This document shows positions 51,850 to 64,000 of a stretch of DNA of 64,000 nt, piece after piece. The stretch spans positions 51,818-115,817 of the forward strand of contig JAOAAY010000005.1 in assembly GCA_026418615.1 (NCBI GenBank), written 5' to 3'. Origin of the DNA: Candidatus Sumerlaeaceae bacterium. Lineage in GTDB: Bacteria > Sumerlaeota > Sumerlaeia > Sumerlaeales > Sumerlaeaceae. The notes under the pieces are model-generated. The model ran no database searches and had not been told where the DNA came from. It worked only from the letters and a program-made list of their open reading frames with translations. Within the stretch, counting starts at the first letter, position 1. Every line of letters starts with the position of its first letter. A program made the translations under genes and the position numbers.

Positions 51850-54800
51850 CTAACCCGCCAGCGCCGTCTCGCGGTCAAACTGACTGCCCTCGAACTCGTC
51901 CAGCCGCAGGCTCACGACACGGCTTACTCCGGGCTCTTCCATCGTGATCCCATAGATCGTATTGGCAAGCGCCATGGTCTGCTTGTTGTGCGTGATGATG
52001 ATGAATTGTGTCGTGCTGGTGAATTCACGCACGAGGTCCTTGAACCGCTCGATGTTCTTGTCGTCCAGAGGGGCGTCAATTTCATCGAGGATGCAAAACG
52101 GGCTCGGCTTGCGCATAAAGATGGCGAATAACAGCGCGACGGCCGTCAGCGCCCTTTCTCCGCCCGAGAGCAGGGAAATGTGCTGAGGATTCTTGCCCGG
52201 CGGCTGCGCCACAATGTCAATGCCGCTGTCGAGCACTCCGTCTTCCGAGGTAAGAATCAGGTCGGCGCGCCCGCCGCCAAACAGCCGACGGAAAACTTCG
52301 CGAAAATTCTCCCGGATTTCTGAAAAGGCCGAGGTGAACAGTTCCGTGGTCGTCCGGTCAATCTCCGCAATCGTCTCGGTCAATTGCTGCTTGGCCGCCA
52401 ACAGATCGGCCTGCTGCTTGGACAGGTACTCGTAGCGATCGCGCTCGGAGACATACTGGCTGATGGCCTCCATGTTGACCGGCCCCAGCCGCGCAATTTT
52501 CTCGCGCAACTCGTGGGCGCGGCGCATCGCCTCATCGCGGTCGGGCAGCACAGCCAGTGCCGACTCGGGCGTCAGCGACTCCAACGACTCGGCACCGATG
52601 GCGCTCCCGGCCATCTGAACCGCCTCCTCCGATGTCCCGCCTCCCTCATCCGCAGGTTCTTCGTCCAATTCTTCGATGAGAGCGGCATCGTCTGAGTTCC
52701 TGACCAGGCGCTCTCCGGCAAACACCAACTTCACAAGGTCATCCAGACTTCTATCAAAGCGTTCGCTTGCCTGCTGGTTCAGCCCTTCGCGCTGTGCACG
52801 CGCCTCCGTGCGGCGCAGATCGGCCTCGTGAAGAGAGTTCTTCGCCTCGTTGAGATCGCGCTGCACCACATGCACGCGCTCGCCCAGTTTCCGCAGGTCG
52901 AGTTGGATCGTGTCGCGGCGCTCGGTTTCCAGAGTGATTTGGCGGCCCAATTCGGCGCGGCGCTCATGCAGCCCGGCCAACCTTTCGCGCAACGACATTG
53001 CCTCCGCGGCAGCCTCCTCATCCTGACGGCGGAACTGCTCAATGTCGCCGAGACGGGCGGCACGCAGCCCGGCCAGCCTCACCTGCTCACGGCGCGCCTC
53101 GGCCAGTCGCTCGCGCGCATTGGAAAGCCGCTGCTCATCCGTTGAAATCTGGATAGCGAGGTCGTTGATCTCAGCGGCAGCCTCGGCCTCCTCCCGCCGG
53201 CGCGACAGGGCTTGCTCCTCCGCAGATTCAGCCTCGCGTTCAAGTTCCGCCACCCGCTCGGCCAAGCGACTGGCCATCTCGATGGCTTGCGCTTCCGTCT
53301 CGCGGTGGCGGGCCATTTCCGTCTCAATGGACTTGCGCCGCGCAGCCAGCGCATCGCGCGCTGCCGTCTTATCGGCAAGTTTCTGTTCGACAAACGCAAA
53401 GTCCGAACGCGATCTCGCCACCTCGACCTCTTGCGCGTTGGTCGAACGCTGTAACTTCTCGTGGCGCTCGCGCAGGCTTGCGCGCTCGTCCCGCAGCCGG
53501 TCGGTTTCCTGCTGCAGTTCCTCCTCGCACCGCGCCAAGGTTTCGAGTTGCGCCGCCAGTTCGCGGATTTCCCGCGTGCGGTGCAGAAGCGTCGAAGCCT
53601 GCACTGAACCGCCCGTCATGGCGCCGTGAGCACTTACCAAGTCACCGGCGAGGGTAACAAACCGCCCCCGGACACCGCGCCGGCGCAACTCGATTGCCTT
53701 GTCCAACGACTCGCAGATGAGCACATTGCCCAACAGATACTCGATCGCCGGTCTCAGGCGTTCCTCATAGCGAATCAGGTCAGACGCCAGCCCCACGACA
53801 CCCGGCTCGCCGACGGCTGCCCGCAGGCCATTGTCCGCTTGACGGCCTTCCACGAGATCCAGCGGAAGGAAGGTGGCTCGGCCGGCTTTCGTCTCGCGCA
53901 GCATCCGGATGGCTGCCTCGGCATCCTCTGCTGTCTCCACGATGATATCCTGGGCCTGCGAACCCAAAGCCACCTCGATGGCCGTCTCGTGCGCTGCCTC
54001 GGCCTGAATCAGTGCAGAGACGACATCCACCACGCCGTGCAAAGCGCCGTCGCGGGCCTTCAGCATCACCTCGCGAACACCGCGGTAATACCCGTCAAAA
54101 TTGGCCTGCATCTCGGCAAGAGCCTTATGGCGGCTCCGGCATTCCTGCGCTTCCCGCCGGGCACTGTCGAGGTTGGCCGCGGCTGTGGCAAACTGTTTTT
54201 CGACTGCCTCGAGCGACGCCGCTGTGGACTCCAAATCGCTGCGCAGCGCCGCCAGCACCTGCTCGGCTTCGTCGAGCGAGGACAAACGCTCGTCCCGATC
54301 GCTCGTGAGAGCCTCGATTTGTTGCTCGAGTAAAGCCAGTTCGGCCTCGCCGCGCCCGAGTTCTTCCGCCAATTTGTCCACCATGGCGCGGGCGATACGC
54401 CCCTCGTTTTCGCGTTCCAGTCGCTCACGGCCTGCGGCCGCTATGGCGTGGCGCAAGGCCGAGGTTCGGGTGGCCGCCTCGTCCGCCGTGGACTTGAGTT
54501 CATCGTAGCGCGCTTTGCGCGCCGCAAAGTCCGCCCGCAGTTGCTCCAGAGCCTCGGCTTGCGCCGTCATGTCCCTCTCGTGCTGGAGAAACCGCTCATC
54601 CGCCGCCGCGGCCTCGCCATCGAGGCGTTCCACTTCCCGGCGCAAATCTTCCTGCCTCGTCCGGCAGGTCTCCCGCCGCTGCTCGAGCAAGGCGACTCGC
54701 CCCTCGATATCGGCAATTTCGCGCTCGAGTCCGAACTGCAACGATTGGGCGTTCTCCAGCGCGGCCTGAACACCCTCCGCGGCCGCACGGTTCTCAGTCT

Positions 54801-55608
54801 CCTCCTCCTCCAAAACGGCTAGTTCCTGCTCAAAACGCTCTACCGCCGCATGCCACTCGGCGTAGTTAGCCTCAACGGAAGCGCTCGCCAGCAGCAGTTC
54901 GAAATGTCTCCTCACCAGCAGTTCCATCTCGAGCGTCTCCAATTCGGCCGATAACTTCCGATGGCGCGCCGCCTTGGAGGCTTGACGCTTCAGCCCATTG
55001 GCCGCCCGCCGAACTTCGTCAATAACGGCAGCCAATCGCTCCAAGTCCGCTTGGGTCCGCTCCAGTTTGCGCAGCGCCTCATCCTTGCGCACCTTGTATT
55101 TGGCAATGCCAGCCGCCTCGTCGAACAGGCCTCGGCGCTCGAGGGGCTTGGAATTGATGATCGCATCAACTTTGCCCTGCTCCATGACCGAGTAACTGTC
55201 CGTTCCGATACCCGTATCAAGAAACAGCGCGGTAATGTCCTTGCGACGGCACACGGCCTTATTGAGCAAATACTCGCTCTCGCCCGTGCGGAAAAGCCGA
55301 CGCATCAGGCTAACTTCTTCAAAATCAATAGGGAGCGCCCGCTTGGCATTGTCCAGAACCAACCCCACCCGCGCCATACCCGTGGCTTTCACGCTTCCGG
55401 AACCACTAAAAATGACATCGTCCATGCGCTCGCCACGCAGGCTCTTAGCGCTTGTCTCTCCCAACACCCAGCGGATGGCGTCGAAAATGTTCGATTTGCC
55501 ACATCCGTTGGGGCCGACGATCACCGTCACGCCCGGTAACAGATCAATGGTGGTCTTATGCGCAAAACTCTTAAAGCCCTGCAGTTCCAAGCGTTTGATA
55601 AACCGCAT
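51850..55608 (-). CDS. smc: Chromosome segregation protein SMC
   Basis: The N-terminus is MRFIKRLELQGFKSF. Walker A GPNGCGKSN, long coiled coils, a hinge, the signature LLSGGERALTAV and Walker B FCILDEIDAPLD are present. The ATG at 55608 is preceded by GAGGTGG. The track start at 55740 adds 44 non-conserved residues. Confidence 0.95.
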   Translation of the reverse strand: MRFIKRLELQGFKSFAHKTTIDLLPGVTVIVGPNGCGKSNIFDAIRWVLGETSAKSLRGERMDDVIFSGSGSVKATGMARVGLVLDNAKRALPIDFEEVSLMRRLFRTGESEYLLNKAVCRRKDITALFLDTGIGTDSYSVMEQGKVDAIINSKPLERRGLFDEAAGIAKYKVRKDEALRKLERTQADLERLAAVIDEVRRAANGLKRQASKAARHRKLSAELETLEMELLVRRHFELLLASASVEANYAEWHAAVERFEQELAVLEEEETENRAAAEGVQAALENAQSLQFGLEREIADIEGRVALLEQRRETCRTRQEDLRREVERLDGEAAAADERFLQHERDMTAQAEALEQLRADFAARKARYDELKSTADEAATRTSALRHAIAAAGRERLERENEGRIARAMVDKLAEELGRGEAELALLEQQIEALTSDRDERLSSLDEAEQVLAALRSDLESTAASLEAVEKQFATAAANLDSARREAQECRSRHKALAEMQANFDGYYRGVREVMLKARDGALHGVVDVVSALIQAEAAHETAIEVALGSQAQDIIVETAEDAEAAIRMLRETKAGRATFLPLDLVEGRQADNGLRAAVGEPGVVGLASDLIRYEERLRPAIEYLLGNVLICESLDKAIELRRRGVRGRFVTLAGDLVSAHGAMTGGSVQASTLLHRTREIRELAAQLETLARCEEELQQETDRLRDERASLRERHEKLQRSTNAQEVEVARSRSDFAFVEQKLADKTAARDALAARRKSIETEMARHRETEAQAIEMASRLAERVAELEREAESAEEQALSRRREEAEAAAEINDLAIQISTDEQRLSNARERLAEARREQVRLAGLRAARLGDIEQFRRQDEEAAAEAMSLRERLAGLHERRAELGRQITLETERRDTIQLDLRKLGERVHVVQRDLNEAKNSLHEADLRRTEARAQREGLNQQASERFDRSLDDLVKLVFAGERLVRNSDDAALIEELDEEPADEGGGTSEEAVQMAGSAIGAESLESLTPESALAVLPDRDEAMRRAHELREKIARLGPVNMEAISQYVSERDRYEYLSKQQADLLAAKQQLTETIAEIDRTTTELFTSAFSEIRENFREVFRRLFGGGRADLILTSEDGVLDSGIDIVAQPPGKNPQHISLLSGGERALTAVALLFAIFMRKPSPFCILDEIDAPLDDKNIERFKDLVREFTSTTQFIIITHNKQTMALANTIYGITMEEPGVSRVVSLRLDEFEGSQFDRETALAG

Positions 55609-55901
55609 TTCGACATTCCACCTCAACATGGCATCGGGGACAACAGCGCTCCAGCACGAGCGCGCTCCCAACGGAGCAACGAGTATTTGGACAAGCCCCG
55701 ATAGGTTTTGTCGCATCGCAAATGTAGGTGACGACAACAATCAACAGCAAAATGCGCCAGCGCGGCGCAAAGGTACCACATATGCAAAAAATTCGAGGCC
55801 TGACACACTGGATATGGCCGCGAGGTCAATATATGGCGTGCCCGCACGAAACGCCAAGAGGCTCACCGCAGAAACATCAACGGTTTGGCTTCCGTCCGCG
55901 G

Positions 55902-57518
55902 TTACCGACGAATCCGGTCGCCCACCCAGCGGCGAATGCGCTGCCAAAGACGACGACGCGGCTTCACTGTTCGCTTGGGATCGGATCGTAAGATATCCAA
56001 AATCCAGCGGTCGCAATTGTTGAGGAAGACCGGATTATCCCCGTAGGCCTCGATAAGCACGCGGTGGTACATGGCCTCTTCATCCGTGGCAATCCTCCAA
56101 TGCGGATAACGCCGAGCGGCCTCCGCCCCCAAACCATGGGCCCCATAGGCATCTAATAAAACCTCGGCCCGCTCAACAACTCCGGAGCCGTGACCAAAAG
56201 CAGCCTTGGGTCGCCAAAGGATTTCATCAGGCAGCAAGCCATCGCACGCCAATCGCAGCACCCATTTCTCCGTCCAGTCGGCGCCCGAGGCGTCCATATG
56301 AAATTTGGCAGAGATGGGAATGCGCATGGCCAAATCAACCAGAGCAGTGTCGAGAAAGGGAACCCGTGCCTCCAACCCGTGAGCCATGGTCATCCGATCC
56401 ACGCGCTGAAGGTTGTTGGCGTGGAGCGTTGCAGTGCAGCGGTGCAATTCGCGCCAAAGCAGATCCGTTTTCCCGGCCCGCAAATACCTTTTAAAATAAC
56501 CGTATCCGCCAAAGAGTTCGTCAGCGCCTTCGCCCACCAACACCACTTTGACATGCTCGCGCGCCAATTTTGCGGCATGCCAGGTGGGAATCGCATGCGT
56601 CACGAGTTCCGGAGCAAAGTGCTCCATCTGACGCACAACCTCGGGCATCACCGTGATCAGGTCGTCCACGGTCAGAATGCGTTCGTGGTGAATAGTCCCC
56701 AAATGCGCCGCGACCCGGCGCGCGGCTTCGAGATCCTGAGAACCCTCAAATCCGACGGAGAAAGTGTGCAATTGGGTCACATACCGCCGGGCCAGTGCCG
56801 CCACGATGCTGCTGTCCAACCCGCCCGACAGGAAAACCCCCACCGGTACATCGCTCATCAGGTGCCGCTCGACTGAGGCAGCCAGCGCTTCGCGGACTCT
56901 CCGGGCCCACTCCAGTGGATCGCGATCTTCCGGTTTATGCAGGGGAACCTTGTAAAAGGTATGGGATACACCATCGCTATCCAGCGTCGAACCGGGGGAT
57001 AGTGCCCGAATGGGGAATGAGGCGTCGGCAAGCGCCTTGAGTTCCGAGGCAAAATGCAAAACCCGCCGACCATCCCCCTTGGTCTCGAAGCCGTAGTATA
57101 AGGGTTTGATACCTAACGGGTCGCGGGCCAGCAGGAGCCGGGGCCCGGCGACCAGAGCAAACCCAAACATCCCGTCAAGGCGGGCTGTGGCAGCGTCGCC
57201 GAGGTCTTCGTGCAGATGAATGATGATTTCGCTGTCGGAGCCCGTGGCCAGCGCATGGCGCCCGGACAGTTCGCGACGGAGCGAGGGATAGTTGTAGATC
57301 TCGCCGTTGGCCACCAGGACACGCGACCGGTCCTCGCTGTAGAGCGGCTGATGGCCGTGCTCGGGATCCATGATGGCAAGGCGGCGACTGCCGATGACGC
57401 CATGGCCCGGCGACACATGCACGCCCTCGGCGTCCGGCCCGCGATGGGCGATCGTGCGCAGCATGTCGCGCACCTTGGGCTCGTCCACAGCGCCCCATTG
57501 ACCGGCTATCCCGCACAC
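55902..57518 (-). CDS. asnB: Asparagine synthase (glutamine-hydrolysing) family
   Basis: A GTG start is followed by the catalytic Cys (MCGIAG). The PP-loop FLSGGLDSSIVAAL is present. The C-terminal tail is basic. Confidence 0.88.
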   Translation of the reverse strand: MCGIAGQWGAVDEPKVRDMLRTIAHRGPDAEGVHVSPGHGVIGSRRLAIMDPEHGHQPLYSEDRSRVLVANGEIYNYPSLRRELSGRHALATGSDSEIIIHLHEDLGDAATARLDGMFGFALVAGPRLLLARDPLGIKPLYYGFETKGDGRRVLHFASELKALADASFPIRALSPGSTLDSDGVSHTFYKVPLHKPEDRDPLEWARRVREALAASVERHLMSDVPVGVFLSGGLDSSIVAALARRYVTQLHTFSVGFEGSQDLEAARRVAAHLGTIHHERILTVDDLITVMPEVVRQMEHFAPELVTHAIPTWHAAKLAREHVKVVLVGEGADELFGGYGYFKRYLRAGKTDLLWRELHRCTATLHANNLQRVDRMTMAHGLEARVPFLDTALVDLAMRIPISAKFHMDASGADWTEKWVLRLACDGLLPDEILWRPKAAFGHGSGVVERAEVLLDAYGAHGLGAEAARRYPHWRIATDEEAMYHRVLIEAYGDNPVFLNNCDRWILDILRSDPKRTVKPRRRLWQRIRRWVGDRIRR

Positions 57519-57564
57519 AACGGCGGTCTTTCCGTGCTGATTCTCATTAGAAGGCGGCTATCCG

Positions 57565-57948
57565 ATGACATTTCTTATTGCAAGTGCGGGCGGAGGACAC
57601 TCACGACTTTGGCCACCTTGCAACCCTCTGATGCGCTCGATGAGACAAACCGACTCAAGCCTTGAACCGGATCGTGCCGTCTCCCCTGCGGAGCACGACC
57701 TGAATGCGCTTGCGGATGCCATCTGCCGCCGGGGGCTTGCGGCTCCGGCCATCTTCTTCATTGAGTCGGTCAAGCCGCTGAATTTCATCGGCAGCCAAAT
57801 GCTGCATGCGCTGACGCCGCTCCTATCGCTGCTGGCCGACCCCGAGCGTATCGAAGCACTGGCCGCTGCGCTCGAGGATCGCGATACGGCGGAACGCCTC
57901 TTGCAGAAAATCGAGGAACGGGAGCAGCAGCCATCGAACCCGAACTGA
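57565..57948 (+). CDS. Small hypothetical protein, first gene of the GlmL-like operon
   Basis: The ORF is 127 aa. The ATG at 57565 is preceded by AAGGCGG, and alternative ATGs are at 57631 and 57640. The segment AAPAIFFIESVKPLNFIGSQMLHALTPLLSLL is hydrophobic/amphipathic. The TGA stop at 57946-57948 overlaps the next gene. I recognise no family. Confidence 0.5.
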   Translation: MTFLIASAGGGHSRLWPPCNPLMRSMRQTDSSLEPDRAVSPAEHDLNALADAICRRGLAAPAIFFIESVKPLNFIGSQMLHALTPLLSLLADPERIEALAAALEDRDTAERLLQKIEEREQQPSNPN

Positions 57949-59732
57949 GATCCATACTCGCAACCGACTGCGGCAGCACGACAACCAAGGCGATTCTCAT
58001 CGCCCGCGATGACAGGGGTGAGTATCGCCTCGTCGCCCGCGGCGAAGCGCCGACAACCGTTGAGGCGCCGTTCGATGATGTGACCGTCGGGGTCTGCAAC
58101 GCCGTTCGCGAGTTGGAGGAAGTCACGGGCAGAAAACTGCTCGACGAGCGCGGCCGCCTGATTCACCCGCAAAATGGCGCCACTGGCACCGACATTTATG
58201 TCTCAACATCGAGTGCGGGCGGCGGATTGCAGATGCTGGTCATGGGAGTCGTCAAATCCATGACGGCCGAAAGCGCCGAGCGCGCGGCCCTCGGAGCGGG
58301 CGCCATCGTGATGGACACGATTTGCAGCAACGACCGGCGGCTGCCCTACCAGCAAATTGCCCGCATCCGGCAATTGCGGCCCGACATGATCCTGCTCGCC
58401 GGCGGCGTTGACGGCGGGACAGTGTCGCATGTGGCGAAACTGGCCGAGTTGGTGGCCGCCGCGCGTCCCACGCCGCGCCTCGGACTGGGCTTTCGACTGC
58501 CGCTCGTCTATGCCGGCAACCGCCTCGCCATGAGCGAGGTCAACGCGATCCTCGCCGACTGTGTGGACATTCACCCCGTCGCGAATGTGCGCCCCGTGCT
58601 TGAGTCCGAAAACCTCGGTCCCGCCCGGGACGCCATTCACGACCTCTTCATGGAACATGTCATGGCGCAAGCGCCCGGTTACGACAAACTCAAGACTTGG
58701 GCCCACATTCCCATCATGCCGACTCCCGGCGCGGTAGGAAAACTCGTGGAAACCGTCGCCCGAGATCGCGGCATCTCTGTGCTGGGCGTGGACATCGGCG
58801 GCGCGACCACCGATGTGTTTTCTGTTTTTCAAGGACAGTTCAACCGCACGGTCTCGGCCAACCTTGGAATGTCCTACAGCGTGGGCAATGTGCTGACCTC
58901 GGCGGGCTTTTCGAATGTGGCACGCTGGATGACGACGAACCTGCCCGATCATGATGTCCGCAACCGGATCAAAAACAAGATCATCCGCCCGACCACGATT
59001 CCCCATCTTCTGGAGGACCTGATCATCGAGCAGGCGTTGGCGCGCGAGGCGCTGCGTCTGTCGTTGGAGCAGCACGCCGCCTTTGCCACCTCGCTCAAGG
59101 GCGTGCAGCGGCGGCGAACCATCGCCGAGGCGTTCGCCCAGTCGGGATCCGGAGAAACCTTGGTCAACATGATGGAACTCGACCTCATCATCGGCAGCGG
59201 CGGCGTCCTGAGCCATGCGCCCCGGCGCGAGCAGGCCGCGCTGATGATGATTGATGCCTTCCTGCCGCTCGGGGTGACGCAACTGGCCGTGGACAGCATT
59301 TTCATGATGCCGCATCTGGGGGTGCTCAGCGAGCGCGCCCCCGAGGCCGCCATGCAGGTTTTCTGGCGGGACTGCCTCGTGCCGCTGGGCGCGGTCGTCG
59401 CACCGGCAGGCCGGGCCCGTATCGGCCGGATCCTCCTCGAATGCACGATTCGCCGTAAAGGTGACGGCCGGCCCGAGACCGTGACCCTCACCGGCGGGAC
59501 ACTCGTGCGCGTGCCTTTGGGCGAGGGTGAGGAGGCGGAGATCACCATCAAGCCTGCCCGAGGCGTTAATGTTGGCGCGGGATCCGGCAAGCCCGTGACC
59601 CGGTCGGTCACAGGCGGGAAAGTCGGCATGATCTTTGACGGCCGCGGCCGGCCTATCCAATTTGACCCCGATCCGGTCCGCCGTCGCGCCAAACTTGCCG
59701 AATGGGCGCGCGCCATAGGAGCCATGGACTGA
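57945..59732 (+). CDS. GlmL/MutL-like ASKHA-fold ATPase (glutamate mutase L family) with C-terminal extension; non-canonical start
   Basis: The frame reads LRSILATDCGSTTTKAILIARDD..., with the phosphate-1 motif DCGSTTTK at 57966..57989. This lies upstream of the first canonical start, the GTG at 58080. The 5' end is set at CTG 57945, which overlaps the upstream stop as CTGA, and is uncertain. A second nucleotide-binding-like motif, VDIGGATTD, is also present. Confidence 0.8.
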   Translation: MRSILATDCGSTTTKAILIARDDRGEYRLVARGEAPTTVEAPFDDVTVGVCNAVRELEEVTGRKLLDERGRLIHPQNGATGTDIYVSTSSAGGGLQMLVMGVVKSMTAESAERAALGAGAIVMDTICSNDRRLPYQQIARIRQLRPDMILLAGGVDGGTVSHVAKLAELVAAARPTPRLGLGFRLPLVYAGNRLAMSEVNAILADCVDIHPVANVRPVLESENLGPARDAIHDLFMEHVMAQAPGYDKLKTWAHIPIMPTPGAVGKLVETVARDRGISVLGVDIGGATTDVFSVFQGQFNRTVSANLGMSYSVGNVLTSAGFSNVARWMTTNLPDHDVRNRIKNKIIRPTTIPHLLEDLIIEQALAREALRLSLEQHAAFATSLKGVQRRRTIAEAFAQSGSGETLVNMMELDLIIGSGGVLSHAPRREQAALMMIDAFLPLGVTQLAVDSIFMMPHLGVLSERAPEAAMQVFWRDCLVPLGAVVAPAGRARIGRILLECTIRRKGDGRPETVTLTGGTLVRVPLGEGEEAEITIKPARGVNVGAGSGKPVTRSVTGGKVGMIFDGRGRPIQFDPDPVRRRAKLAEWARAIGAMD

Positions 59733-60850
59733 TGGCCCACGCGTATACACCCGGATTGCGCGTCGCGGAGCGCGCACACATCCGTAAACGCCGGATGTTG
59801 CCCATACGCGGGAATGTGCTGGTGGCGCGCGGAGCCCGTGTCTCCGCGAAAGACATTGTCGCACGCACCGATCTGCCGGGAAATGTCCAACTGGTAAACA
59901 TCGCCCATAACCTCGGGATCGAGCCCGCCGATGTCCCGAGCAAGATGCGGGTGGAACTTCACAAACCCATCCGCAAGGGCGACCTGCTCGCGGAAAACAT
60001 CGGCTTGTTCGGGCTGTTCCGATCCAGCGTTTACGCCCCGAGCGACGGGACGATCGAATCCGTCTCCAAGGTCACGGGGCAGGCCTTATTGCGCGAGTTG
60101 CCCATACCCCTCGAAGTCACCGCTTACATCTCCGGCGAGGTCACCGAGGTGATCGAGGACGAAGGGGTGGAGATCACCACGGAGGGAACCTTCATTCAGG
60201 GCATCATCGGGATTGGGGGCGAGAAACTCGGCACGATCCATGTCCTCGCGAAATCCCCCGAGGACACCCTTCAGCCGGACGCGATTGATGAGTCATGCCG
60301 CGGCAAGGTCATCGTGGGCGGGGCACGCGCACCGCTTCAAACCTATTTGCGTGCAGCCGATATCGGGGCCGTGGGTCTTGTCCTCGGAAGTTTCGATGAC
60401 AGCGACCTTGGCAGCATCCTCGGTTACGATCTGGGCATCGCGATCACCGGCGGCGAGGATCTTACCACCACACTGATCCTCACCGAGGGTTTTGGCGAAC
60501 TAGCCATGGCACGGAAAACCTTTGATCTGCTGGGCTCGCTGCACGGGCAGGCGGCCAGCATCAACGGCGCGACACAAATCCGCGCTGGCGTCATCCGGCC
60601 GGAAATCATCGTGTCGCGCCATCAGACCGGGGAACGCGCCGAAGTCACGGCTTCCACCGAGACTGCCGTTGGCGCGCGCGTGCGCATCATCCGTCAACCG
60701 CATTTCGGCTCAATTGCCACCATCCGGGCGCTGCCGCCTGAGCCCGTGGTCATTGAATCGGGAGCCACTGTGCGCGTGATGACCGTGGAGTTGCCCGACG
60801 GCACACTCCACACCTTGCCTCGTGCGAATGTGGAGTTGATCGAGGAATGA
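59732..60850 (+). CDS. Hypothetical soluble protein with lipoyl-like barrel-sandwich-looking N-terminal region and KOW/SH3-like C-terminal segment
   Basis: The ATG at 59732 overlaps the upstream TGA as TGATG, so the track start at 59702 is unlikely. The N-terminus is MAHAYTPGLRVAERAHIRKRRMLPIRGNVLVARGARVSAKDIVA, followed by SDGTIESV. The C-terminus is GARVRIIRQPHFGSIATI. The domain calls rest on pattern only. Confidence 0.7.
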   Translation: MAHAYTPGLRVAERAHIRKRRMLPIRGNVLVARGARVSAKDIVARTDLPGNVQLVNIAHNLGIEPADVPSKMRVELHKPIRKGDLLAENIGLFGLFRSSVYAPSDGTIESVSKVTGQALLRELPIPLEVTAYISGEVTEVIEDEGVEITTEGTFIQGIIGIGGEKLGTIHVLAKSPEDTLQPDAIDESCRGKVIVGGARAPLQTYLRAADIGAVGLVLGSFDDSDLGSILGYDLGIAITGGEDLTTTLILTEGFGELAMARKTFDLLGSLHGQAASINGATQIRAGVIRPEIIVSRHQTGERAEVTASTETAVGARVRIIRQPHFGSIATIRALPPEPVVIESGATVRVMTVELPDGTLHTLPRANVELIEE

Positions 60851-61866
60851 CACGGATGACGACCTACCGACGCCGACAGCCGGCCCCAGTCAAAAGGCTC
60901 AGAGGGGCGGCATTGGCAGCCTTGCTGACCTTCCTCACCGTGCCCGCATTTGCGTCGGACAGAATTCTGACCGAAACTGTTACGCTGTTTCGGATCCCGG
61001 CTTCGTGGCTTGATGCTGCTGCCTCCACAGATGCCGACAGGATGGTCGTGAAGTTCGATGTCACTCGCCTGCCTGTCTTGATCGTCTTGGTTCTTTTTGG
61101 TTCCTTTTTCCTCATCCTTCAGATGAAAGCGCGCTCGGGCGCGCACCTGGCGCTGCGCCGTCTGCCGGGCATTGACGCCATCGAGGAGGCCATCGGCCGC
61201 GCCACAGAGATGGGGCGCCCGGTGCTCTTTATCCCGGGGCTCAATGATATTGACGACATTCAGACGCTGGCAGGCGTCAGCATCCTCAGCCATGTCGCGT
61301 ACATCGCGGCAGAGTACGACACGCCCGTGATCGTGGCCTGCCGGCGGTCTGTGGTGCTGACCATGTGCGAGGAGACCGTGCGCCAGGCCTGCCTCGCCGC
61401 AGGACGCCCGGAGGTGTTCATCCCGAACAACATGCGTTACCTGTCGGACGATCAGTTTGCGTTCACGGCAGGAGTCAACGGCATCATGCTGCGCGAAAAA
61501 CCTGCGTCGTGCATTTATCAGGGATGCTTCTACAGCGAATCGCTGATCCTGGCCGAGACTGGCTTTGTCAGCGGGGCCATTCAGGTGGCCGGAACAGCCA
61601 ATATCAGCCAGTTGCCCTTTTTTGTGGCGGCCTGCGATTACACCCTCATCGGGGAAGAGTTTTTTGCGGCGTCCGCTTATCTGTCCAAGGAGCCGTCCAT
61701 CCTTGCGAGCATCAAGGCCAGCGATTGGCTCAAGATGGTTGTTTTGCCCGTCATCCTGATCGGTGTACTACTGGCGACCTTGGCGGCCTTCGAGCCGCCG
61801 CCCAAAGACGGATCACCGCCATCGCAGCGGCAGCGCGCAGTCCAGTTGCTGAAGGAGGTCCTCTGA
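60847..61866 (+). CDS. Hypothetical membrane protein (signal/TM, TM, large soluble domain, C-terminal TM)
   Basis: The start overlaps the upstream stop as ATGA. Hydrophobic segments are AALAALLTFLTVPAFA, LPVLIVLVLFGSFFLILQM and VVLPVILIGVLLATLAAF. I recognise no family. Confidence 0.7.
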   Translation: MTRMTTYRRRQPAPVKRLRGAALAALLTFLTVPAFASDRILTETVTLFRIPASWLDAAASTDADRMVVKFDVTRLPVLIVLVLFGSFFLILQMKARSGAHLALRRLPGIDAIEEAIGRATEMGRPVLFIPGLNDIDDIQTLAGVSILSHVAYIAAEYDTPVIVACRRSVVLTMCEETVRQACLAAGRPEVFIPNNMRYLSDDQFAFTAGVNGIMLREKPASCIYQGCFYSESLILAETGFVSGAIQVAGTANISQLPFFVAACDYTLIGEEFFAASAYLSKEPSILASIKASDWLKMVVLPVILIGVLLATLAAFEPPPKDGSPPSQRQRAVQLLKEVL

Positions 61867-61869
61867 TCC

Positions 61870-62619
61870 ATGCGCACGCTCGTCCCCGTCCTGATCACCG
61901 CCTTTGTCGGCGTTTTCATGATCCTGAAGTTTTTTCTTGTCCATGACGGCGTCCGGACGGTTGCCAACGAACTCGAGCAGTGGGGTGTCGTGACGCTCGC
62001 GTTCGCGATTATTCTCGGAGTGCTCAATCTCGCCCGAATCAACTTGAAGGCTGTTCTCGAGCGCAAACGCGACTGGGGCTACAAACTGATCCTGCTCGTC
62101 TGCATGTTTGGCATGATGACGGCCGGCGGAGTGAAATGGTACCGCGACATTGATGCGGCCCGCGCCCAGAAGGCTCTCGAGGCGGCCGTGGCTGCCAACC
62201 CGGTGGCCGAGGGCGCGGCACCGCCACCAGCCGTGGTGGAAGCCCGGCGGGCCAGCGAGGTTGCCGAGCAGCGCGCCAAATTCACGGTTTTCACATTTAT
62301 TTTTGACCAAGTGTACACCCCGCTCTCGGCCACGATTTACGCTTTGCTGGCTTTCTATGTGGCCTCGGCGGCCTTCCGGTCATTCCGGGCCAAGAGCCTT
62401 CACTCGGCACTGCTATTAATCGCCGCGGTCATCGTCATGATCGGGCGCGTACCCGTCGGAAAAGTCATTTGGAGCAAGTTCCCCGTACTGCAGGACTGGA
62501 TTATGGTATGGCCCAACACAGCCGGGCAGCGGGCTATCTTGATGGGGGCGGCCATTGGGATGATTGCGACCGGCATTCGCGTGATCTTCGGCATCGAGCG
62601 GCCGTACCTGAAGGGATGA
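61870..62619 (+). CDS. Hypothetical polytopic membrane protein (~6 TM)
   Basis: The gap to the upstream gene is 3 nt. Helices include LVPVLITAFVGVFMILKFFLV, VVTLAFAIILGVLNLARI, LILLVCMFGMMTAGGV, ATIYALLAFYVASAAF, ALLLIAAVIVMIG and AILMGAAIGMIATGIRVIFG. Confidence 0.7.
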   Translation: MRTLVPVLITAFVGVFMILKFFLVHDGVRTVANELEQWGVVTLAFAIILGVLNLARINLKAVLERKRDWGYKLILLVCMFGMMTAGGVKWYRDIDAARAQKALEAAVAANPVAEGAAPPPAVVEARRASEVAEQRAKFTVFTFIFDQVYTPLSATIYALLAFYVASAAFRSFRAKSLHSALLLIAAVIVMIGRVPVGKVIWSKFPVLQDWIMVWPNTAGQRAILMGAAIGMIATGIRVIFGIERPYLKG

Positions 62620-62623
62620 TGAG

Positions 62624-63499
62624 ATGACCGCCGAGCCCAAACCGCTTCTCATCCGTTTCTTCCGCGCTTTGCTGGCCCTCGACCGCCGCTGGATTTTCCT
62701 CGCGGTTGGCGCGTTGAGCCTCATCTTCCTGACCATCAATGTCCGCCTGCCTATTCCCGTCTCCCAGCAGTCCCGGGACATGTTCAATGTTATTACCTCT
62801 CTGCCACCGGGGGCGCGTGTCCACCTCTCCATAGATTATGGTCCGAGTTCGCAGGCGGAACTGTGGCCCCAGCATGTCGTCATCCTGCGCCAGTTTTTCC
62901 GCCAGCGGGTGAAGGTGATTGCCTCGAGTCTCTGGGCCGATGGCCCCTCGATGATCGAGCGCGGCTTTCGGGAAGTGCTCGAGGAATTGAAGAAGGAGGG
63001 AATCGAGCCGAAACGCGGCGTGGATTTCGTGAATCTCGGCTACAAGGCCGGCGACCGCGTTGCGATCGCGAAAATCGCATCCTCTTTCAAAGAGACCTTC
63101 CCCGTGGATTATCAGGGCAACCGGACGGCCGATTTGCCGATCATGCAGGGGTGGGACAACTATTCGGGAATTGATTTGCTCATCACGATCGCGGTCGGCG
63201 ATCCGGGGGCCACCGAGTACATTCAGCAGGCACAAAGCCGTTACAATGTGCGCATGGTGGCGGGCGTCACGGCGGTGCTGGCACCGCAACTCTACTCCTT
63301 CTACCAGTCGAAAAACCTGCTGGGCTTCCTCGGAGGACTTGCCGGCGCGGCAGAATACGAGACTCTCGCCGGCGAACCGGGACTTGCGACCCGCGGCATG
63401 AACACACAGAGCGCCGTCCACATGCTCATCGTGCTCCTCGTTCTTGCAGGAAACGCCGCGTACTTTTACCTGCGCCTTCATGGCGAGAAGGTGAGGTAA
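62624..63499 (+). CDS. Hypothetical bitopic membrane protein (N-TM, soluble domain, C-TM); possible distant paralogue of 60847..61866
   Basis: The gap to the upstream gene is 4 nt. The TM segments are WIFLAVGALSLIFLTI and AVHMLIVLLVLAGNAAYFYL. The segment GGLAGAAEYETLAGEPGLAT resembles GEEFFAASAYLSKEPSILAS of the 60847 gene by eye. Confidence 0.7.
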   Translation: MTAEPKPLLIRFFRALLALDRRWIFLAVGALSLIFLTINVRLPIPVSQQSRDMFNVITSLPPGARVHLSIDYGPSSQAELWPQHVVILRQFFRQRVKVIASSLWADGPSMIERGFREVLEELKKEGIEPKRGVDFVNLGYKAGDRVAIAKIASSFKETFPVDYQGNRTADLPIMQGWDNYSGIDLLITIAVGDPGATEYIQQAQSRYNVRMVAGVTAVLAPQLYSFYQSKNLLGFLGGLAGAAEYETLAGEPGLATRGMNTQSAVHMLIVLLVLAGNAAYFYLRLHGEKVR

Positions 63500-63507
63500 C
63501 GAAAACC

Positions 63508-64000
63508 ATGGAAAACCTCTCCCCCTTTACCGAAGGCCTTGGCATCTGGCTCACCTGCCTGCTCACGCTGGCCGTGTTCAGTTTTCTCTACCGCGACAAT
63601 CCGATTTATAAACTGGCCGAGCATGTGTATGTCGGCGTGGCTGCCGGATATTACTTTTATCAAGCGTTTCGCGGCACTGTGTACCCCAATTTGATCCAAC
63701 ATGTGGCCGACGGCATCCAACTTTTGAACAAGGGGGATGCGGCGGGCTGGACCGCGCAGTGGCGCTGGGGAGCCCTCGTGCTGGGCCTGCTCGTCCTCTC
63801 GCGGCTGTTCCCGAAAATTTCCTGGATCTCCCGGTGGCCCATGGCTCTCGTGGTGGGTGCGTTCGCCGGTCTGAACCTGATCGGGTTTGCGCAGGCCAAC
63901 CTGATTGATCAGATCAACGGCACCTTTCTGCCACTGGGCGGATACATGACCGGCAAGGCCGAGATGATGCCTTTCCTGCCGCCCGCCGGAAAGCCCGGGG
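63508..64000 (+). CDS. Hypothetical polytopic membrane protein, 5' part; runs off the right window edge
   Basis: This gene is absent from the ORF track. The ATG at 63508 lies 8 nt after the upstream stop and is preceded by GGTGAGG. My translation reads MENLSPFTEGLGIWLTCLLTLAVFSFLYRDNPIYKLAEHVYVGVAAGYYFYQAF...WGALVLGLLVLSRLF...MALVVGAFAGLNLIGFAQ... and is open to 64000. Confidence 0.65.
   Translation, partial: MENLSPFTEGLGIWLTCLLTLAVFSFLYRDNPIYKLAEHVYVGVAAGYYFYQAFRGTVYPNLIQHVADGIQLLNKGDAAGWTAQWRWGALVLGLLVLSRLFPKISWISRWPMALVVGAFAGLNLIGFAQANLIDQINGTFLPLGGYMTGKAEMMPFLPPAGKPG

Follow-up and report, generated by a model that had tools for sequence, protein, structure and literature searches.

A conserved two-module operon of a Candidatus Sumerlaeaceae bacterium encoding a GlmL-like ATPase and a DUF6754 membrane protein

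We describe here a seven-gene operon at the 3' end of a 64,000-nucleotide stretch of DNA from a Candidatus Sumerlaeaceae bacterium (the window; contig JAOAAY010000005.1, positions 51,818 to 115,817). The genes, named g1 to g7 in their order along the plus strand, form two modules. The first, g1-g3, is cytoplasmic and encodes a small soluble protein, a GlmL-like ATPase of the ASKHA fold, and a soluble three-domain protein, and the second, g4-g7, encodes a DUF6754 protein and three further membrane proteins; one g1-g3 module is combined with one to three g4-g7 modules. We tentatively propose, with a confidence that falls a little short of even, that the seven genes specify one conserved, membrane-associated machine, which would be driven or gated by ATP, would draw on a shared energizing module, and would have its target in the envelope or periplasm. 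That the genes belong to one functional system is suggested by a linkage conserved in both relative orders, by overlapping stop and start codons, and by matching levels of conservation, and an ATP-driven or ATP-gated machine provides the best fit because the ATPase is intact, a cytoplasmic domain is conserved, other domains are directed outward, and the ratio of the modules is one to many. From the sequences we infer that the ATPase may be physically coupled to the membrane complex and that the role of the system may lie in transport or in the envelope. A sequence-only reading of this DNA had arrived at a single ATPase-coupled membrane operon of an undescribed kind; this is still the best reading of the comparative evidence, but what it took for an indivisible unit consists of two separable modules.

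In the mechanism that we envisage, the ATPase module would dock on the cytoplasmic domain of the DUF6754 protein, with two possible adaptors, the small g1 protein and the peptide MAHAYTPGL at the N-terminus of g3. ATP binding and hydrolysis would then set off conformational changes, relayed by the membrane subunits to the domains that face outward, such that something could be moved or assembled by the machine at the inner membrane or across it. That the ectodomains of the DUF6754 family are variable suggests that the target may be in the envelope or periplasm, and the shared energizing module could serve interchangeable membrane modules in the manner of the group II energy-coupling factor (ECF) transporters. 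Most known ATP-driven membrane machines rely on P-loop or P-type ATPases, and none of the seven proteins matches ABC_tran or a related P-loop ATPase in Pfam or NCBIfam; if the proposal is correct, and an actin-fold GlmL-like ATPase powers or controls a machine this widespread, the operon would represent a new kind of energy coupling. A bolder form of the proposal, and one that we regard as doubtful, is that the operon represents an undescribed and ancient class of machine in which an ASKHA GlmL-like ATPase energizes a four-subunit complex present as up to three paralogous modules, that it is a vertically inherited core component in many lineages of the FCB group, the PVC group, and the Acidobacteriota, and that it acts on the envelope or periplasm through the DUF6754 ectodomains.

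The system is undescribed as far as the searched libraries show. Of its seven proteins only g2, a member of the MutL family, and g4, a member of a domain-of-unknown-function (DUF) family, fall within described families, and a literature search by family names and annotation phrases returned nothing relevant to the system. Between phyla it is conserved to the degree expected of core cellular machinery, from which an important function can be deduced, and the phyla that carry it dominate sediments, soils, and anaerobic digesters and are largely uncultured.

Distribution and linkage of the two modules

With one genome scanned per species, a DUF6754 relative is present in at least 592 species. The carriers include Sumerlaeota, Eisenbacteria, Zixibacteria, Planctomycetota, Ignavibacteria, Calditrichota, WOR-3, and Cloacimonadota, as well as Fermentibacteria, Riflebacteria, Coatesbacteria, Stahlbacteria, Marinimicrobia, Acidobacteriota, and others, and among named relatives those of Candidatus Sumerlaeota (BRC1) are the closest. 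The species cluster of Singulisphaera sp. GP187, also picked up in the search, may offer a cultured carrier. DUF6754 alone accounts for 1135 clusters at 50% identity with E-values of 1e-30 or below. The sequence-only reading had made its proposal depend on conservation of the gene neighborhood in related genomes, and that conservation is found: the order g4-g5-g6-g7 is unvarying in about 80 loci, which represent at least 15 phyla, and g1-g2-g3, usually linked to it, constitutes a second block that is fixed in order and single-copy.

The geometry of the linkage varies. In many phyla g1-g3 lies directly 5' of g4-g7, as in the window, and in seven loci (L015, L018, L021, L036, L040, L041, and L075) it lies directly 3' of g7. 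Same-strand adjacency of the modules is seen in at least nine phyla (Sumerlaeota, Eisenbacteria, Planctomycetota, Acidobacteriota, Riflebacteria, Coatesbacteria, Zixibacteria, Fermentibacteria, and Marinimicrobia), and its occurrence in both orders indicates that the linkage has been retained, or re-created, after rearrangement. The g4-g7 block is moreover present in tandem in some loci, twice in L008, L009, L011, L035, L085, and L088, and three times in L012, L014, L055, and L081, and these tandem copies sit beside a single g1-g3 module. Several types can be distinguished among the copies, with identities of 64-92% within a type (Ignavibacteria compared with Zixibacteria) and of about 50-57% between types. 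Because identity within types exceeds that between types across lineages, the copies appear to be old, sub-functionalized paralogues that share one ATPase block.

Several considerations weigh against a single machine and are best taken together. Among the roughly 41 loci with full flanks, g1-g3 is missing within 8 kb of g4-g7 in about 16 (about 40%) and is linked in about 60%, and in WOR-3 genomes g3 is found alone beside, and translationally coupled to, a TMEM260-like glycosyltransferase with TPR repeats; the modules can evidently be unlinked. We are not aware of any membrane machine that is powered by an ASKHA ATPase of the hydantoinase/GlmL branch, nor of experimental proof for the function of bona fide GlmL itself. 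In addition, no transporter-like fold or motif was recognized in g5 or g7. The unlinked loci and the lone g3 of WOR-3, together with the divergent orientation of g2 and g4 in L057 and L068, would also fit a model in which the modules are functionally independent and simply frequent neighbors, with g4-g7 as a self-sufficient complex (an ion-driven or secondary transporter, for example, or a structural assembly) and g1-g3 as a separate enzyme or regulator. We consider such independence unlikely, given that same-strand adjacency recurs so widely and in both relative orders, that the g3 stop and the g4 start overlap in the window, and that both families are comparably abundant, with at least 8000 matches each (g2, g3, and g4 each have at least 8000 protein clusters at 90% identity).

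The ATPase module

The g2 gene (57945-59732, plus strand) encodes a protein of 595 residues that belongs to the Pfam family MutL (PF13941) of the ASKHA superfamily, as is evident from full-length coverage and conserved nucleotide-binding motifs. The match has an E-value of 2e-126 and a score of 422.8 bits against a threshold of 27, and aligns residues 4-476 to positions 1-449 of the 450-position model; Hydantoinase_A is a secondary Pfam match, and some 120 residues at the C-terminus (approximately 477-595) form an extension beyond the PF13941 match. The curated models nevertheless place it well outside the named groups. It scores 231.6 bits against a cut-off of 475 for NCBIfam GlmL (NF040745, methylaspartate mutase accessory protein), 223.6 bits against 600 for Or-4 (NF040744, the GlmL-related ornithine degradation protein), and 164.2 bits against 204.05 for glmL_fam (TIGR01319), and the earlier description of g2 as an orphan GlmL-like ATPase is thus borne out. 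The motifs DCGSTTTK, DIGGATTD, and GSGGVLSHAP are near-invariant among 35 relatives, with the phosphate-1, phosphate-2, and adenosine motifs all intact, and g2 is accordingly predicted to be an ATPase with a complete set of nucleotide-binding motifs. It is 62-66% identical to its relatives in Planctomycetota, Zixibacteria, Eisenbacteria, and Schekmanbacteria, and a sequence search identified no relative in the PDB.

The translation start of g2 must be non-canonical, because the conserved phosphate-1 motif ILATDCGSTTTK starts at 57954 and there is no ATG, GTG, or TTG upstream of 58080; relatives of g2 begin 0-10 residues ahead of this motif. Initiation is likely at the CTG that overlaps the g1 stop codon, since a relative with 84% identity (L089) has the same CTGA junction and likewise offers no canonical start for g2 (57933-57956 in the window and 1425-1450 in L089). 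The lack of a canonical start near the conserved N-terminus also explains why, in several Sumerlaeota assemblies, gene callers shorten g2 to 547-572 residues, with loss of the phosphate-1 motif.

Public records designate g2 relatives of about 600 residues (P0390-P0508) as 'glutamate mutase L' or 'methylaspartate mutase'. None of these was observed beside a mutase, and none passes the curated GlmL models. The labels have probably been carried over from the family name alone, in what amounts to a systematic over-annotation, and thousands of such entries are probably mis-named and could distort metabolic reconstructions of the lineages that carry them.

The g3 gene (59732-60850, plus strand) encodes a soluble protein of 372 residues that begins with the peptide MAHAYTPGL, followed by a beta-rich region of the barrel-sandwich-hybrid type (approximately 11-171), a small alpha/beta domain (approximately 192-296), and a KOW/SH3-like domain (approximately 316-369). 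The AlphaFold2 (AF2) model, with a predicted local distance difference test (pLDDT) score of 86.8, shows the beta-rich N-terminal domain, the alpha/beta domain, and the KOW/SH3-like domain, and leaves the N-terminal peptide disordered, although this peptide is invariant in the alignment. Weak Pfam matches recur among 60 relatives (RnfC_N in 54, Biotin_lipoyl in 52, NQRA_N in 25, and KOW in 13), the best RnfC_N match having an E-value of 4.9e-8; the window protein itself has no such match. A profile search against the PDB yielded nothing except a marginal KOW match (E-value 0.05), and Foldseek matches to the PDB are at the level of domains only, to Thermotoga maritima NusG (2xhc; E-value 3e-5, TM-score 0.15) and to the KOW domains of Spt5. 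The Pfam matches of relatives, the AF2 model, and Foldseek are in agreement with the barrel-sandwich N-terminus and KOW-like C-terminus first proposed from the window alone. Between phyla g3 is about 50% identical (alignments A2 and A4). In two WOR-3 genomes (L086, 6825-11125; L087, 6712-11012) the homologue stands alone without g2, and its start overlaps the stop codon of a gene for a 1058-residue TMEM260-like (GT-C glycosyltransferase)/TPR protein.

The first gene of the operon, g1 (57565-57948, plus strand), encodes a small soluble protein of 127 residues, with no transmembrane (TM) segment predicted and no match in Pfam, NCBIfam, or PADLOC. Its conservation profile displays an amphipathic core, ..P.I.FLE..KPL.F.G.Q.L....P.. 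followed by LE.R...E.L...IE, and homologues are situated directly 5' of g2 in more than 30 loci, where g1 invariably heads the g1-g2-g3 module.

The membrane module

The g4 gene (60847-61866, plus strand) encodes a protein of 339 residues that is a clear member of Pfam DUF6754 (PF20539), with an E-value of 5e-107 and a score of 357.3 bits against a threshold of 27; we found no paper that mentions DUF6754, a family with no assigned function. A Sec-type signal peptide and a short outside stub are followed by a TM segment (approximately 72-96), an alpha/beta domain (approximately 107-280), and a second TM segment (approximately 283-314). The AF2 model (pLDDT 85.3) similarly has a parallel alpha/beta domain flanked by two TM helices, for which Foldseek against the PDB gave only generic Rossmann-like matches with query-normalized TM-scores of 0.28 or below; sequence and profile searches of the PDB likewise yielded nothing for g4. 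The alpha/beta domain is very highly conserved, with g4 containing 50 invariant residues among 60 sequences and being about 50-60% identical between phyla. On the positive-inside rule it is predicted to be cytoplasmic, because there is a signal peptide and because basic residues follow the first TM segment.

Most relatives of g4 differ from the window protein on the other side of the membrane, where the stub is replaced by a large and variable ectodomain with Fn3 repeats or a BamB-like beta-propeller (PQQ_2). Among 148 sequences retrieved from the top 150 listed representatives at 50% identity, the median length is 503 residues and 119 have a hydrophobic, signal peptide-like N-terminal leader. 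Because most DUF6754 relatives are longer by such an N-terminal ectodomain, the window protein can be regarded as a minimal form. Long ectodomains of the Fn3-repeat or BamB-like type are found in P0257, P0292, and P0296, and P0066 has DUF6754 fused to an N-terminal VanZ-like membrane domain; we also note that a recurring motif, V.D.P.DDG.G, opens many of the ectodomains.

The three remaining genes have no counterpart in the family libraries. The g5 gene (61870-62619, plus strand) encodes a polytopic membrane protein of 249 residues with at least four TM segments and the conserved motifs TMFALLAFFxASAAxRAFRAR and LGIERSYLG, and follows g4 in every locus examined. It has no PDB match, and no consistent Pfam match was found in 36 members scanned singly, one of which matches Rnf-Nqr with an E-value of 0.066. 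The g6 gene (62624-63499, plus strand) encodes a bitopic protein of 291 residues whose predicted layout consists of an inside N-terminus with an invariant DRR, a first TM segment, a domain of about 220 residues, a conserved GAAEYE helix, a second TM segment with an invariant histidine and asparagine (alignment A5), and a basic inside tail. The positive-inside rule predicts that the g6 soluble domain faces outside. The g7 gene (63508-64000, plus strand) runs past the window edge, and 164 of an estimated 215-270 residues of a polytopic membrane protein are visible; FSFLYKDNPxYK and YFFFSxEHKG...FGAxFGYTVMxRxSLLIGR are conserved (alignment A7). Neither g6 nor g7 belongs to a Pfam or PDB family, and when members of the g5, g6, and g7 alignments were scanned singly only scattered, one-member Pfam noise was seen; together with g1, these three proteins matched no entry in Pfam, NCBIfam, PADLOC, or the PDB.

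The module is an inner-membrane one, in which the g4 alpha/beta domain is predicted to be directed to the cytoplasm, and the g6 domain and, in most relatives, the g4 ectodomain to the outside. We concur with the sequence-only reading that the 372-residue protein and the membrane proteins match no characterized family, g4 being part of the uncharacterized DUF6754 and g5, g6, and g7 having no matches at all. Its suggestion that the two bitopic proteins are distant paralogues does not survive, as hhalign gives g4 and g6 a probability of 2.2% and the topology predictions put the two soluble domains on opposite faces of the membrane. Paralogy of g5 and g7 was likewise rejected (hhalign probability 0.3%).

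The nature of these proteins permits a quite different model to be considered, that of a membrane-bound metabolic enzyme complex in which g2 would be a GlmL-type chaperone or reactivase that repairs a cofactor, such as a corrinoid, or loads it onto the alpha/beta domain of g4 or g3. Both of those domains are Rossmann-like and contain very many invariant polar residues, in the manner of an active site, the named members of Pfam MutL accompany B12-dependent glutamate and ornithine mutases according to the family descriptions, and in Eisenbacteria-like and Fermentibacteria-like loci the operon has glycine-cleavage genes and lplA at its flanks. However, the gcv/lplA neighborhood is confined to some lineages, the scores of g2 against the curated GlmL and Or-4 models are far too low, and g4 has neither the B12-binding DxHxxG motif nor any invariant histidine among 60 sequences. 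Neither g3 nor g4 matches a B12 domain or a mutase in Pfam, the PDB, or Foldseek, and no cobalamin riboswitch was found in eight related loci or in window positions 55000-64000. We therefore think the enzyme model quite unlikely. The earlier statement that no mutase or other B12-enzyme gene is present here can be extended downstream, as there is none in the window region and none 3' of the operon in related loci from Sumerlaeota, Planctomycetota, and others. With no mutase, no riboswitch, and no B12-binding motif, a B12 link of the operon was rejected.

Resemblance to known systems and genomic context

Comparison with described systems indicates which features of the operon are shared and which are not. 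With GlmL/MutL of the B12-dependent glutamate mutase and with Or-4, g2 shares membership of an ASKHA-fold family and the PF13941 domain from end to end, but it scores less than half of the cut-offs of the curated equivalogs, falls below the glmL_fam cut-off, and has the C-terminal extension of about 120 residues. It also differs from GlmL in its company, as in the loci examined it is never seen beside glmS, glmE, or another mutase, and g1 and g3 constantly accompany it, usually with g4-g7 as well. The putative barrel-sandwich-hybrid at the N-terminus of g3, in a soluble protein encoded beside membrane subunits, is reminiscent of RnfC in Rnf and of NqrA in Na+-NQR, but any similarity is confined to this domain; g3 and its relatives lack the Complex1_51K, SLBB, 4Fe-4S, and NqrA C-terminal domains in Pfam searches and have alpha/beta and KOW-like domains instead. 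Nor do the membrane partners correspond, since neither g5 nor g7 belongs to the Rnf-Nqr family that would identify RnfD/E/A or NqrB-E.

The genomic logic of one ATPase module, linked or unlinked, with one or more alternative and anciently diverged membrane modules would be shared with group II ECF transporters and ABC importers, although the operon described here encodes an ASKHA-fold ATPase and has no ABC or other P-loop ATPase and no EcfT-like or S-component-like protein. MreB-MreC-MreD and PilM-PilN-PilO offer another parallel, in that an actin-fold cytoplasmic protein is encoded with bitopic partners having outward-facing domains and with small polytopic ones. Docking of PilN on PilM is mediated by a conserved peptide at the PilN N-terminus, to which the invariant, disordered N-terminus of g3 may be comparable. 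However, no homology of the MreBCD or PilMNO proteins to g2 or its partners is detectable, and each bitopic protein of the present operon has two TM helices. We regard the ECF, MreBCD, and PilMNO resemblances as ones of organization, and not of homology.

By analogy with MreBCD and PilMNO, g2 could be an actin-fold scaffold on the membrane, within a morphogenetic or cytoskeleton-like system that uses the variable ectodomains to position structures of envelope synthesis or of the surface. Its ASKHA (actin-like) fold, the set of bitopic and polytopic partners resembling MreCD and PilNO in outline, the docking-type N-terminal peptide conserved on g3, and the variable Fn3 and beta-propeller ectodomains of g4 are all consistent with such a role. 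Yet the hydantoinase/GlmL branch, in which g2 is placed by its secondary Hydantoinase_A match, is not known to polymerize, and there is no sequence or profile similarity of g2 to MreB, FtsA, or PilM, nor of its partners to MreC, MreD, PilN, or PilO, and we consider a scaffold very unlikely. A further candidate, an anti-phage defense system, was rejected because none of the seven proteins has a PADLOC-DB match with an E-value of 0.01 or below; cross-phylum identities of 50-65% also argue against a defense role. An ATP-driven or ATP-gated machine remains the interpretation that we favor.

The operon itself is compact. All seven plus-strand open reading frames (ORFs), together with the junctions and gaps reported in the sequence-only reading, were recovered from the ORFs and the letters: g1 and g2 overlap in CTGA (57945-57948), g2 and g3 in TGATG (59730-59734), and g3 and g4 in ATGA (60847-60850), and the gaps are 3 nt between g4 and g5, 4 nt between g5 and g6, and 8 nt between g6 and g7. 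Base composition is uniform across the region, at about 60-64% G+C, and no promoter-like or terminator-like sites were detected inside the operon above chance level. Upstream, a glutamine-dependent asparagine-synthase-like protein of 538 residues (55902-57518, minus strand; its start is 46 nt from g1) and a 1296-residue SMC protein (51850-55740, minus strand) are encoded divergently, and because these genes are on the opposite strand the operon is taken to begin with g1.

The 3' end of the operon is taken from relatives and not from this contig; an identical Logan contig (L001) stops short of the window end, and an exact-match look-up of g6 returned nothing. A second Sumerlaeota genome (L002) contains the same seven genes, encoding products of 99, 602, 375, 343, 253, 310, and 266 residues, followed by a convergent gene, which indicates that the operon is complete at seven genes, and g7 (about 215-270 residues) is the final operon gene in relatives. 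The operon had been read as one of at least seven genes that continues past the window edge; g7 does cross the edge, but the relatives have no operon gene beyond it.

Recurrent neighbors of the operon are restricted to particular lineages and include gcvTHP, lplA, a TonB-dependent receptor, an NTP-transferase, and ExbB, none of which is universal. In eight Eisenbacteria-like or Fermentibacteria-like loci (L005, L006, L019, L023, L029, L071, L085, and L088) the operon lies between gcvT-gcvH-gcvP1-gcvP2 and lplA, and a TonB-dependent receptor gene is often located 3' of the operon in loci of this kind. An additional protein of about 150 residues, in which a hydrophobic hairpin of two helices is joined to a soluble tail that is conserved, is encoded just 5' of g1 in nine loci (L005, 3771-4295; L006, 3850-4320; L017, L023, L041, L069, L078, L079, and L080) from Eisenbacteria-like and Phycisphaerae genomes, and has no counterpart in the window. 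In one planctomycete locus (L084), PMT_2 and GT2 genes are just 5' of the operon.

Long antisense ORFs overlap g2, g3, and g6 in the window, at 58203-59864 (553 residues), 58949-59962 (337 residues), and 62534-63481 (315 residues), all on the minus strand. These are shadow ORFs of high-G+C DNA and not genes, and similar spurious clusters are present in related loci.

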